A stretch of 64,000 nucleotides of DNA from Candidatus Gastranaerophilales bacterium (GCA_045598245.1 JAZLLQ010000035.1:5579-69578), one strand, 5' to 3'; counted from the first letter of the stretch, positions 59,421 through 62,522 are shown. Numbers and translations are program-made. The notes: a model not told the origin generated them from the letters alone.

Positions 59421-62400
59421 TTAAGCTAATTTTTTCTTTGAATCTGCTGAACCATCACCACTTGCAGAGCTGTCAGCACCTGTTGAAGCACTTTCGCCTG
59501 AGTCAGAAGTTGAAGAACCTTGACTTGATGTATCTTCAGTTGAAGTTTCTTGAGTTTGTTCTGTTTCTTGTGATTCTTCAGTTTCTTCAGTTTCTTCTGT
59601 TTCTTTGTTTTCTTCAGTTTCTTCCGTTTTTTCTTCCTCTTCTACCTTTTCATCTTTTTTATCTTTTTTATCTTCAGCCTTTTGGTTTTTATTAGCGCCG
59701 TTTGCAGCACCTGCTTTAGCAGCACCGCCTGCAGCGTTTGCATTTGACATATCTGATGCTACTGCTGAATCATCGCTTACATCTGATGTTGTGCTGTCAG
59801 TAGCAGCTGCAACGTTTACTTCTTCAACACCTTGGTCTTGAATATTTAATTGAGATGCATCACCGCTTGCTGCAATTTTTTCAGCTTCTGCAACTGCTGC
59901 TTCTTCTCTGTCAGCACCGGCTCTTGCAACGCTTTGAGCTTGGCTTGCTTCACTTGTTGCTTCTTGAGCTATGCTTTCTTGTTCGATTTTTTGAGATTGA
60001 ATTTCTGATTTTTGAGCTTCTAAAGCAACTGCTCTTGCGTTAGCTGCTGATGCTTTATCTTGTGCAGATTTAGCTGTTTGAGCTGCTGCATCTGCTTGCT
60101 TTTTATTTGTTTCTGCTGTTTTTTGAGTTGTATCTGCACCTGTTTTAGCTTGAGTTTTGTCAACATTTGACCATGTTACAACTTTTTGACCTTCTTCTCT
60201 GTCGTTGCAACCAACTGCTATACCTGCTGCACCTGCTGCACCAACTACTGTACCTGAAATTATTTGGTGGTCACCGATTGCTTCCATAGCTGAACCTGCG
60301 CCTTGAGAAACTTTGCCCCAACCGATTGATAACCAGCCTGCAGTTTGCTGAGCAGTACCTGCTGCACTTGTTGGTGGTGGCGGAACTTGAGGAGCACCTG
60401 CTGCAACCATTCCATCTCCGGCACCTTCTTGAGCAGTACCTGCCGCAAATAAACCTCTACCTGTAGTTTCTTCAAGTATACCGCTTGTAACCATTGTAGC
60501 ACCTGCACCTGCAGCTACACCACCTGCTGTTACTTCGACTTTACCTTGTGTAGTTAAATCGCCGCCACCTTTTTCAGTAACATGAGCTTGTCTTTCTGCA
60601 AGTTTATAGCTGTTACCTGCGGTTATAGCGTCATTTGCCATAAGGTCGTATACTGATTTGTATTGTTGAGCTGACTGAGCAGTTGCACTGGCATTTGATG
60701 CTTCGGTTTTAGCACTTGCAATAGCACTGTCTATTGATGATTCTTTCTCTGCTAATGATTGTGCATTTGCACTTGCTTTTTCTGCTTTAGCGTTAGCTGC
60801 TGAAACTTTTTCATTTGCTGATGCAACTTGCTTTGCTGCGTTTTCTTTTTCTGCATTAATTGTTGCGAAAGCTGCTTGTACTTCTGCTACGTGAGCTTGT
60901 TTTTCCTGTTGTTCTTCAGCTTGGTCTTTTTGTTCGCTTTGTTGACTTTCTTGTGCGTCTTTTCTTTCATTAGCTTGTTTATCATTTTCTGCTTTAGCTT
61001 TTTCGTTTTGTTCTTTTTGACCTTGAGCTACTTTGTCTTGTTGTTTTTCCTGAGCATCTTTTGCCTGAGCTTGTTGCTTATCTTGAGCTTTTCCGGCTTC
61101 AGCTTTTTGAACTGCTTCTGCTTCTAAACTCTTAGTATCTTGTGATTTTGATTGAACTTGTGTTGCATTTGAAGTAGAAGTATTTGCTGATGCACTGCCT
61201 CCGCCTGCTGATGAACTTGCTTTAGAGGTATCTGCTGCCGGCATTGCTCCTTTATCTTTGCATTTTGCACCTTGAGATTTTGCCTTTGCTAATGCTTGTT
61301 TATCGTTTTGTACTTGCTTTTTAGCATTTTTATTTTTAATTTCACCTTGCTTAATATTGCTGTCTAATTTCTTTGTAGCGGAGTTACCGTCTGATTCATT
61401 GCCGGATGCTTCATTATCAGCACTGTTTTCTTTTCTTTCCGCAGTATTACTGTCTTTTTCTATTGAATCAGCTTGTTTTTCTGCTGATGCTTGTGCATCT
61501 TCTGCTTCACCTTCAGCTTTATCACATTCATCTTCATCGTCTTCATCAATATCCGTATCAACATCGGCTTTATAAGTGGTTGAAGAATCTAAGCCATCAT
61601 AAGTGCTTGATTCGTGGACGTAACCTGCTAAATTCGATTTACTGTTGCTGCTGCCGGTTGTATCTTTCAATGTGATATCGCCGTTATCTTGCATTGTTTT
61701 TATGCTGCTTACTAATTGTGTTGTGTCTAAATCTTTATTTGCACTTGTTGAATCAGAATTTGCTGTTGCAATATTTTTGAAGTTTTGAGAAACTTTTTGA
61801 AGATTTTCGCTGCTCAATTCACTTGCAACTTTTTTACCGTTTGATTCAAATGATGATTTATTTTCTTTATAAGCATTTTGTATTGTTGATTCCAAGTTAT
61901 CGGATTTGCTTTCACTTGTTTTTTGAGTATTGTTAGTCAGGCTTCCGAAACTTGCTTTTTGTGACTGTGTTGAAGAAGCATTATTTGTGCTGTTAGTTAA
62001 ACTGCCAAAACCTGATTTTCCGTTAGACGAACTTGCTTTTGAAGTGTTTTGAGGATTAGTGGCATTGTTTGTTTTGTTTGTTAAAGAGCCAAAGCCTGTT
62101 TGTTGTTGGTTTTCTTTATCGTTGTTTTTATTTTCAACTTTCGCATCACGATGCTTAAGAGGGTTTGAAGTACCGTTAGCAAGTGCTGTCATTTCATCAT
62201 AATTTAATTCGGAAATATCTATTGATTTCATATTTCCGTTTTCATCTTTAACTTGTGCATTATCAGCTTTGCCGGTAACATTCAAGTAGATGCCCATTAA
62301 TTCATTTACATCATCTGAGCCGTTTGCTTTTGCCATAACATTTTGAATGTTATTTGAATATATGCTTTCTCCGGTTGCGTCTGCTAATTCCTGCTTTGCA

Positions 62401-62522
62401 AAAATAGAATTTTCATTCTGTTGATCTTTTTGAAGCTGAGTAACTGATGTGTGTAAATTAGGATTTACACTTGATGCTCCTGCTCCGTTTAATTTTAGTA
62501 GATTTGTAAAATCGATGCCCAT
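59421..62522 (-). CDS. Large low-complexity coiled-coil protein (1033 aa) with FGSLTN repeats, a central glycine-zipper hydrophobic region and an acidic S/T/E tail
   Basis: Three (G/S)FGSLTN repeats (61926-62096), K/Q/A/E-rich helices, and a Gly/Ala hydrophobic core at aa 655-775 (60198-60560). The C-terminus carries ETEETEE repeats encoded by a 9-nt DNA periodicity (about 59560-59640). Confidence 0.75.
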   Translation of the reverse strand: MGIDFTNLLKLNGAGASSVNPNLHTSVTQLQKDQQNENSIFAKQELADATGESIYSNNIQNVMAKANGSDDVNELMGIYLNVTGKADNAQVKDENGNMKSIDISELNYDEMTALANGTSNPLKHRDAKVENKNNDKENQQQTGFGSLTNKTNNATNPQNTSKASSSNGKSGFGSLTNSTNNASSTQSQKASFGSLTNNTQKTSESKSDNLESTIQNAYKENKSSFESNGKKVASELSSENLQKVSQNFKNIATANSDSTSANKDLDTTQLVSSIKTMQDNGDITLKDTTGSSNSKSNLAGYVHESSTYDGLDSSTTYKADVDTDIDEDDEDECDKAEGEAEDAQASAEKQADSIEKDSNTAERKENSADNEASGNESDGNSATKKLDSNIKQGEIKNKNAKKQVQNDKQALAKAKSQGAKCKDKGAMPAADTSKASSSAGGGSASANTSTSNATQVQSKSQDTKSLEAEAVQKAEAGKAQDKQQAQAKDAQEKQQDKVAQGQKEQNEKAKAENDKQANERKDAQESQQSEQKDQAEEQQEKQAHVAEVQAAFATINAEKENAAKQVASANEKVSAANAKAEKASANAQSLAEKESSIDSAIASAKTEASNASATAQSAQQYKSVYDLMANDAITAGNSYKLAERQAHVTEKGGGDLTTQGKVEVTAGGVAAGAGATMVTSGILEETTGRGLFAAGTAQEGAGDGMVAAGAPQVPPPPTSAAGTAQQTAGWLSIGWGKVSQGAGSAMEAIGDHQIISGTVVGAAGAAGIAVGCNDREEGQKVVTWSNVDKTQAKTGADTTQKTAETNKKQADAAAQTAKSAQDKASAANARAVALEAQKSEIQSQKIEQESIAQEATSEASQAQSVARAGADREEAAVAEAEKIAASGDASQLNIQDQGVEEVNVAAATDSTTSDVSDDSAVASDMSNANAAGGAAKAGAANGANKNQKAEDKKDKKDEKVEEEEKTEETEENKETEETEETEESQETEQTQETSTEDTSSQGSSTSDSGESASTGADSSASGDGSADSKKKLA

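Follow-up and report, generated by a model that had tools for sequence, protein, structure and literature searches.

The stretch of DNA analysed here (the window) comprises 64,000 nucleotides (nt) from a Candidatus Gastranaerophilales bacterium (GCA_045598245.1 JAZLLQ010000035.1:5579-69578), and its minus strand carries, at 59421-62522, the gene for the 1033-amino-acid (aa) protein that is the subject of this analysis, referred to below as the target. The gene forms a single uninterrupted open reading frame (ORF) of 1033 codons in an interval that is full of stops on the plus strand, and because a 3.1 kb open frame in such AT-rich DNA is not accidental, the gene is real. Its G+C content, about 40% as against about 33% for the genome, is raised by its alanine and glycine codons. 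Judged by sequence, the protein belongs to no described family and is a member of a new and very rare one, the overall layout of which is of a known kind. The N-terminus reads MGIDFTNLLKLNGAGASS and lacks the h-region of a signal peptide, in agreement with a sequence-only reading of this locus that preceded our analysis, and the homologues start alike, with M-[GSA]-I-[DNY]. This conservation of homologue N-termini confirms the ATG start codon, and an alignment of the N-termini revealed no signal peptide in any family member.

The composition of the protein is unusual, with alanine at 16%, serine at 11.6%, glutamine at 8.1%, leucine at 3.4%, isoleucine at 2.9%, phenylalanine at 0.9% and arginine at 0.9%, compared with 6.5, 6.5, 3.7, 8.9, 8.4, 4.3 and 3.4%, respectively, in the other 50 proteins of the window. 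On direct reading, the parts that had been listed for it, namely a polar N-terminal region of ~320 aa, an acidic patch, tracts rich in A/K/Q/E, a PPPP motif, an ETEETEE tail and a Ser-rich end, were all present where they had been placed (Table 1). Coiled coils had also been proposed on either side of a hydrophobic centre. A full-length AlphaFold 2 (AF2) model, made from the single sequence and usable for secondary structure only (mean predicted local distance difference test score, pLDDT, 47.9), placed helices at aa 331-367, 381-422, 472-644 and 790-884, and coil with a pLDDT of ~30-36 at aa 645-786. Predicted helices with modest heptad periodicity do lie at aa 545-644, which is Ala-rich (z 4.9), and at aa 790-884, and modest heptad periodicity was also seen at aa 331-422 (z 7.5 at 3.55 residues); the coiled-coil proposal does not extend, however, to aa 472-545, a Q/K/E/A/D-rich stretch with neither amphipathic nor heptad periodicity, which may be a charged single alpha-helix or spacer.

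Table 1 Features of the target gene and its protein, with positions in the window
Feature	Position	Strand	Basis and remarks
Complete ORF, 1033 aa plus stop	59421..62522	minus	ATG start; monocistronic
Upstream intergenic region, 284 nt	62523..62806	minus	Read directly
Extreme N-terminus, aa 1-9, MGIDFTNLL	62496..62522	minus	Family pattern M-[GSA]-I-[DNY]-x-x-x-x-[LI] in alignment; no signal peptide
N-terminal domain, aa ~27-125	62148..62444	minus	phmmer, alignment and AF2: three helices, beta-hairpin around D-x-N-G, then a helix (predicted)
Three [GS]FGSLTN copies, aa 144-149, 172-177 and 192-197	61929..62096	minus	In an N/S/T-rich linker; direct reading
Acidic patch DVDTDIDEDDEDECDKAEGEAED, aa 320-342	61497..61565	minus	Also in subfamily A: P0001 DVDADIDEADKSD, L085 EVDMDFDEENEAE
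Long predicted helix, aa 472-644	60591..61109	minus	AF2 secondary structure and periodicity
Hydrophobic segment H1, aa 665-683, TAGGVAAGAGATMVTSGIL	60474..60530	minus	Weak: Kyte-Doolittle hydropathy (KD) 1.19, summed Hessa +4.78
H1-H2 loop, 70 aa, Gly/Ala/Thr/Gln-rich	60264..60473	minus	Holds PPPP and GWLSIGWGK; direct reading and composition
Hydrophobic segment H2, aa 754-772, IISGTVVGAAGAAGIAVGC	60207..60263	minus	KD 1.79, summed Hessa +2.75
Second long predicted helix, aa 790-884	59871..60155	minus	AF2; heptad periodicity z 2.8
Acidic E/T-rich, then S/G/D-rich tail, aa 949-1033, ending KKKLA	59424..59678	minus	Direct reading and homologues

Searched exhaustively with phmmer, 1.84 billion cluster representatives yielded 10 relatives (E-values 4e-52 to 1e-6), all of them from metagenome assemblies and mostly fragments; the assembly labels WILK20, XIEF21 and STEW19 hint at an origin in the rumen, although a literature search for the sample accessions gave no result. 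The family falls into two subfamilies. Subfamily A contains the target together with P0001, which is 41% identical to it over aa 176-508, P0002, P0003, P0006, P0007 and P0009, a fragment 56% identical to aa 839-906 of the target. The 503-nt contig that carries P0009 (L087) has very low coverage and at 3-203 also codes for a PX-domain-like peptide of a kind usually found in eukaryotes; the contig is probably chimeric, and this fragment calls for caution. Subfamily B contains P0004/P0011 (904 aa), P0010/P0012 (854 aa), P0005 and P0008, the last of which continues in L084.

Only the N-terminal domain (N-domain) aligns between the subfamilies, with 33-42% identity and an hhalign probability of 98.3% for aa 34-131, and in target numbering the residues E74, Y79, G84, K85 and A89 are invariant. 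When AF2 was given the alignment, the pLDDT reached 81-88 over aa 40-125. A Foldseek search of this model against the PDB and BFVD gave no match, Pfam held nothing for the domain, and no weak match recurred consistently across 10 N-domains. As modelled, the N-domain is a compact alpha/beta fold without known relatives. An EF-hand reading of its D-x-N-G-N loop was considered and rejected, as the spacing is unlike that of a 12-residue EF-hand loop and AF2 places a beta-hairpin there. Beyond the N-domain it is the order of parts that the two subfamilies have in common: M-[GSA]-I-[DNY], N-domain, one to three FG motifs, a motif resembling F-L-x-L-T, long polar linkers, Gly/Pro-free helical stretches on either side of a hydrophobic patch, an acidic tail and a final KKL[AG], with subfamily B ending in an acidic tail and NIKKLG. 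Every relative that reaches that far has one or more FG motifs after the N-domain, examples being AFGSMTSK in P0001, SFGLTNK in P0003, VMFGTAATK in P0004 and VFGGISAK in L084.

Searches outside this family returned nothing. No match for the target was found in Pfam (E<=1), NCBIfam (E<=0.1), PDB sequences (E<=1), PHROGs, PADLOC or plasmid records, and the relatives were likewise without a match in Pfam, NCBIfam, PHROGs and PADLOC scans. Profile searches of the PDB yielded nothing, and word-index searches with the full-length protein and with its core only (aa 641-800) gave no match among 8000 candidates that were probably saturated by low-complexity words, while the N-domain profile recovered from the word index only two proteins that were already known. 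Pattern scans with the protein (genome and metagenome contigs) and with N-domain alignments (metagenome and viral contigs) found no relatives, and the exact target and DnaJ sequences had no identical record. The caveat attached to the sequence-only reading, that the protein could be assigned to none of the classes it had suggested, stands.

The P0004 and P0011 genes are nearly identical. They differ at 48 synonymous and 18 non-synonymous positions (dS 0.093, dN 0.0084), where dN and dS are the non-synonymous and synonymous substitution rates, giving a dN/dS of 0.09. In this lineage, the whole protein, its low-complexity parts included, is under purifying selection; the family is therefore functional. 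A ratio of 0.09 is lower than expected for an antigen under diversifying selection, an expectation that does not come from a compared gene set. Two relatives carry a single in-frame TAA: in L084 it lies at 1411-1413, exactly at the end of the N-domain, and is followed by 747 more open codons, and in L083 it lies at codon 441 (2672-2674), with the frame open to the end of the contig. Possible explanations are recent nonsense alleles, a split gene and errors in the assembly.

Turning to the Gly/Ala-rich centre, this is a real compositional anomaly: glycine and alanine together account for 40.5% of aa 655-775 (60198-60560), compared with 11.8% in the other 50 window proteins, and no other stretch of 121 aa in the window exceeds 27.3%. 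The hydrophobic Gly/Ala-rich core of some 120 aa that had been described was found in its place as regards composition, but only two 19-aa segments within it, H1 and H2, stand out as hydrophobic; the mean KD of aa 651-750 is about 0.1, and there is no broad 120-aa hydrophobic block. Among other proteins encoded in the window, the peaks of 12 soluble enzymes and chaperones lay at KD 0.76-1.55 and those of the CNNM, M50 and SPFH membrane proteins at 2.7-3.1. H1 is unremarkable by this measure; H2, of intermediate value, tops every segment of the 12 soluble proteins tested and is the target's best, though marginal, transmembrane candidate. The centre had further been called a glycine zipper, the patterns of which, (G,A,S)xxxGxxxG and GxxxGxxx(G,S,T), reportedly go back to Kim et al. 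2005. Aa 655-775 contain two matches, where 5000 composition-preserving shuffles gave 3.6 on average (P(>=2) = 0.81), so that the apparent zipper reflects composition alone.

A hydrophobic patch at the junction of the helical arms is kept in all four full-length members of the family. It is most pronounced in P0004/P0011, where 45 hydrophobic residues (ICIDIGVATLALSTAAQGVIGVPCAIGGALIGYALIAAGAVLM; best window KD 2.08, summed Hessa 0.41) are long enough for two helices and a tight turn and would make a convincing hairpin. A basic cluster, KKRGARYEKRGR, lies on one side of this stretch and MRKGHNIDKHGR / RKGHNIDKHGRTQINRGEHK on the other, and given such dense basic flanks on both sides an N-in/C-in hairpin in the inner membrane would be expected from the positive-inside rule. 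Core length ranges from 13 to about 110 aa among the relatives. What is conserved is thus a hydrophobic, Gly-containing patch between helical arms, and not a defined transmembrane hairpin or pore element. The arrangement of helices around a hydrophobic centre that had been noticed in the target does recur in the few relatives, with a 45-aa hairpin in P0004/P0011, although the length of the centre is not fixed. In subfamily B the Gly/Pro-free arms are nearly equal in length (132/125, 118/90 and 156/125 aa), which is compatible with an antiparallel stalk.

The gene itself stands apart from its neighbours. Between it and an upstream 114-aa ORF on the same strand direct reading revealed a hairpin, AGCATGC-N13-GCATGCT, with a T-run after it (~62724-62757; the consensus scan skips loops of more than 8 nt); this element probably terminates the upstream ORF, and the target gene therefore probably has a promoter of its own. 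Its 3' end faces a convergent plus-strand operon that ends at 59358, and the plus-strand genes converging on it encode a TPR protein, a LeuA-like synthase, GrpE, DnaJ, a beta-propeller protein, an O-methyltransferase and two small ORFs. Tandem 9-nt and 36-nt repeats occur in the DNA of the tail region. Rfam and tRNA scans revealed nothing near the gene, and a search of the window for a paralogue of the target and of the target for a long internal repeat found neither. One of the small ORFs, of 124 aa (58599-58973, plus strand, beside the target's 3' end), matches phrog_15216, a family without assigned function, over its C-terminal part, aa 70-116, which contains the zinc-ribbon-like motif CSKCNGWH (E = 2.8e-7).

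The block grpE-dnaJ-propeller-methyltransferase is syntenic in at least 24 Gastranaerophilales genomes. The gene that follows the methyltransferase differs in each of these loci, and when five parts of the target were compared by phmmer with every ORF of the loci (E<=10), no homologue of the target came up. Proteins with canonical EF-hand loops (DKDNNGIIDQKE, DANGDGVIDAGE) and no signal peptide are encoded after the O-methyltransferase gene in L009 (13551-14831) and L020 (13681-15942); at least the one in L009 has a C-terminal LysM-like motif, and both are unrelated to the target by phmmer. The window's DnaJ is at most 60% identical to that of any GTDB species representative, and its best 27 matches come from Gastranaerophilales/Melainabacteria assemblies from animal guts, several of which are labelled otherwise. 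Elsewhere, the window is ordinary chromosomal DNA, encoding SMC/ScpA, a class II aminoacyl-tRNA synthetase, ThyX, an M50 protease, a GGDEF-HD protein and FliW, and its annotated parts contain neither phage genes nor a secretion cluster, about 20 ORFs, most of those in the first 24 kb among them, having been outside the Pfam scan. The genes for FliW, the flagellin assembly factor (50724-51161, plus strand), and for the GGDEF and HD-GYP-type signalling protein (47458-49323, plus strand) suggest that the organism is flagellated now or was recently.

The relatives lie in quite different surroundings. The P0004/P0011 gene stands between an SBP_bac_3 gene and a 462-aa gene without an assigned family, with Trk, DAHP synthase (aroG-like) and, 5-8 kb away, type IV pilus assembly genes (a T2SSE ATPase and a PilM/PilN-like gene) upstream and PGI, MurG and FtsW downstream; the L084 gene lies between a Na/Pi cotransporter gene and rpsI, and the L083 gene follows dapA fragments. 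No neighbour is common to the window and the relatives' contigs, and in these four contexts, the window and three contigs of relatives, no secretion, chaperone or flagellar gene was found beside the family's gene. Either the gene works by itself or its partners are encoded at other loci.

These observations directly support a real gene in a small family with collinear parts, purifying selection, a compact N-domain without known relatives, and an absence of a signal peptide and of linked secretion or phage genes, and from them we infer membrane attachment, a topology, a stalk and a role as a scaffold. The reading that we prefer, with rather less than even confidence, is that the protein is a lineage-specific, very acidic, mostly helical or disordered tether or scaffold that faces the cytoplasm and is held at the inner membrane. 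H1 and H2 would then form a weak hairpin or re-entrant anchor that leaves both termini in the cytoplasm, the flanking helices would form a stalk, and the N-domain, the FG-type motifs and the C-terminal KKL[AG] would be putative binding sites kept off the membrane by long low-complexity linkers. In its favour are the small family with its collinear architecture, the P0004/P0011 stretch with its basic flanks, an H2 above the soluble range, the lack of signal peptides, the low dN/dS, the near-equal arms of subfamily B, and monocistronic genes in four different housekeeping neighbourhoods with no conserved partner.

Several results weigh against this proposal. H1 falls inside the range of soluble proteins, and both H1 and H2 are well below the real transmembrane helices of this genome; AF2, at low confidence and from the single sequence, gives coil throughout the core; and basic flanks of the kind seen in subfamily B are missing around it. 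The patch is only 17 residues long in L084 and 13 in P0010/P0012, too short for a hairpin, and as P0010 and P0012 are intact, come from two samples and are 99% identical, membrane anchoring is not invariant in the family. The target's own arms are unequal (134 versus 73 Gly/Pro-free residues), and outside the N-domain the target and subfamily B cannot be aligned even profile to profile, so that its core is equated with the P0004 hairpin on position alone.

Many of these points speak for the main rival reading, a soluble cytoplasmic spacer or hub, disordered or helical, in which the Gly/Ala/Thr-rich centre is a flexible linker. Such a protein would account for the low mean hydropathy of aa 651-750, for an H1 in the soluble range, for zipper patterns no commoner than chance, for AF2 coil at aa 645-786 (pLDDT ~30), for a core reduced to 13-17 aa in intact relatives and for the lack of a positive-inside signature in the target's flanks. 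We nonetheless regard it as somewhat unlikely, given that H2 exceeds any segment of the 12 soluble proteins in hydropathy, that P0004/P0011 carry their 45-aa hydrophobic stretch at the equivalent position, and that the patch is kept at the junction in all four full-length members.

The idea that the protein works outside the cell is unlikely in our judgement. It would be a secreted or surface protein exported without a Sec signal, for example by a flagellar type III, a type I or a type IV route, and its hairpin would enter a target membrane. The lack of a signal peptide sits beside extreme N- and C-termini that are conserved across subfamilies only 33-42% identical in the N-domain; the protein contains little Cys, Trp, Arg or other aromatics and much A/S/T/N/Q; all members come from a single lineage, and outside the N-domain they diverge fast; the in-frame TAA of two relatives would fit a dispensable accessory gene; and the genome encodes FliW. 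Some Gastranaerophilales carry complete flagellar gene sets (PMC4040986), and early flagellar subunits use two export signals, small non-polar N-terminal residues and an F-x-x-x-hydrophobic element at least 30 residues in (PMC8983047). Subfamily B, with SIYTL at residues 2-6 and FAKQL at residue 37, resembles such signals, but the target's subfamily has FAKQE and no F-x-x-x-hydrophobic, and the combined pattern occurs in 13 of 50 unrelated proteins (26%). Against export there is also the want of adjoining secretion, chaperone or flagellar genes in the four contexts and of homology to translocator or pore-forming families in Pfam, NCBIfam and the PDB, a dN/dS that is low for an exposed antigen or effector, a core of variable length, and the basic flanks of the P0004 hairpin, which suggest the topology of a resident inner-membrane protein. 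For the translocator or pore-former put forward in the sequence-only reading, only the layout speaks; homology and linked secretion or chaperone genes are lacking and the core is variable. A bolder version, which we think improbable, would make the family a new class of non-Sec exported substrates in gut and rumen Gastranaerophilales, the hairpin of which inserts into a foreign membrane. The SIFAKQ(L) element, together with the conserved extreme N-terminus, might direct it to flagellar type III export, or alternatively a type I or type IV-like system might read the acidic tail and KKL[AG]; once outside the cell, the Gly/Ala-rich hairpin would enter the membrane of a host, protist or competitor. 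If this were true, the translocator idea would have been essentially right, and the family entirely new.

A phage tape-measure protein, which had also been suggested, or the remnant of a mobile element can be given hardly any credence. Tape-measure proteins are long, helical and A/K/E/Q-rich, often with Gly-rich hydrophobic segments, and the 124-aa ORF next door has its weak PHROG match. Nevertheless, tblastn against 50,697 phage records and searches of plasmid records, PHROGs and viral contigs gave no match; the flanks are chromosomal housekeeping genes in a block syntenic in at least 24 genomes, with no tail, capsid or integrase genes nearby; and relatives adjoin trk, aroG-like, rpsI and pgi genes. 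Gene context and the lack of phage similarity exclude this class.

Membrane proteins of two kinds are among the closest known systems. Chlamydial Inc proteins, with a bilobed hydrophobic domain, and mitofusin/Fzo1, with its HR1-TM-TM-HR2 order, have a hairpin between helical regions and both ends on one side. The target resembles them in lacking a cleavable signal peptide, in having helices on either side of a central hydrophobic stretch and in its polar remainder; it differs in having no sequence or profile similarity, no context of a type III secretion system (T3SS) injectisome and no GTPase domain, and in that its segments are marginal and lie a 70-aa loop apart, with only 13-17 aa in some relatives. 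FimV/HubP/TspA are large, acidic, low-complexity polar hubs with a mid-protein membrane segment, a small globular domain, short terminal motifs and rapid divergence. The target shares with them an acidic low-complexity build, rapid divergence, and one small conserved domain with terminal motifs, and one relative lies 5-8 kb from type IV pilus genes, a loose linkage that is not seen in the window. FimV and HubP, however, have a signal peptide, a LysM domain in the periplasm and a FimV motif at the C-terminus, whereas the target has no signal peptide and no LysM or FimV match (Pfam, NCBIfam), and the model of its N-domain is not a LysM fold.

The T3SS translocators IpaB/YopB/SipB are similar in having no Sec signal, helices around hydrophobic segments and a polar remainder, but homology, an adjacent class II chaperone and injectisome genes are absent and the hydrophobic length is not conserved; with regard to their two hydrophobic helices, the target offers KD 1.79 and 1.19, where the true transmembrane helices of this genome reach 2.7-3.1. 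A similar long helical composition rich in A/K/E/Q is seen in tape-measure proteins and in TolA domain II, yet the target has no PHROG, phage or Pfam match, and its polar N-terminus lacks the N-terminal transmembrane anchor of TolA; the TolA-like homology that had been raised was found in neither Pfam nor NCBIfam. Like synuclein, with its NAC region, the target combines a core rich in G/A/V/T/E/K/Q with an acidic C-terminal tail, but it differs from amphipathic 11-mer lipid binders of the synuclein, LEA and apolipoprotein type in periodicity. A synuclein/LEA-like 11-mer reading was accordingly rejected: an 11/3 (3.67-residue) periodicity occurs in no helical region, and where there is periodicity, it is about 3.5 residues.

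To our knowledge, almost nothing has been described of the cell biology of the Gastranaerophilales, uncultured non-photosynthetic relatives of cyanobacteria from animal guts. The interest of the family lies in its rarity (10 clusters among the 1.84 billion representatives) in the strong purifying selection that maintains it, and in an N-domain that is new both by sequence and by Foldseek against solved structures. If a membrane-tethered scaffold is the right reading, the protein would hint at an organising structure peculiar to the lineage, serving for instance pili, flagella or division; an exported protein would be a new type of effector or translocator. In either case the evidence so far offers a candidate for experimental work and does not establish a mechanism.

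Other large proteins of the window and of related genomes came to light in the course of the analysis. A 1187-aa ORF at 26533-30096 (minus strand), with no Pfam match, no signal peptide and a long C-terminal region, contains runs of repeats like N-x-G-D-D / G-G-D-G-D-D that resemble calcium-binding repeats, and is a further candidate for a non-Sec secreted protein. An 863-aa ORF at 5555-8146 (minus strand), again with no Pfam match, has a Gly-rich hydrophobic segment near its N-terminus (AAGGVLIGAGTIGLIALCA, KD 1.99), then a coiled-coil-like stretch and finally a large domain without an assigned family that ends in the HExxH-like WLHEMLHQ. A 564-aa ORF at 24328-26022 (minus strand), which has no Pfam match, encodes a probable membrane protein with several segments of moderate hydrophobicity, and at 12695-15769 (plus strand) a 1024-aa superfamily 1 helicase (AAA_11/AAA_12) carries a C-terminal MTES_1575-type restriction-endonuclease-like domain. 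Large Gastranaerophilales proteins without signal peptides are also encoded in L025 (17035-19092), L018 (17246-19345) and L008 (10309-12336), all on the minus strand; they are not homologues of the target and have far stronger Gly/Ala-rich hydrophobic stretches, such as AVAGVATGLIAIGTGGIGLGVIGAGAAIGAG in L025. Large proteins with Gly/Ala-rich hydrophobic stretches may thus be a recurring theme in the Gastranaerophilales.

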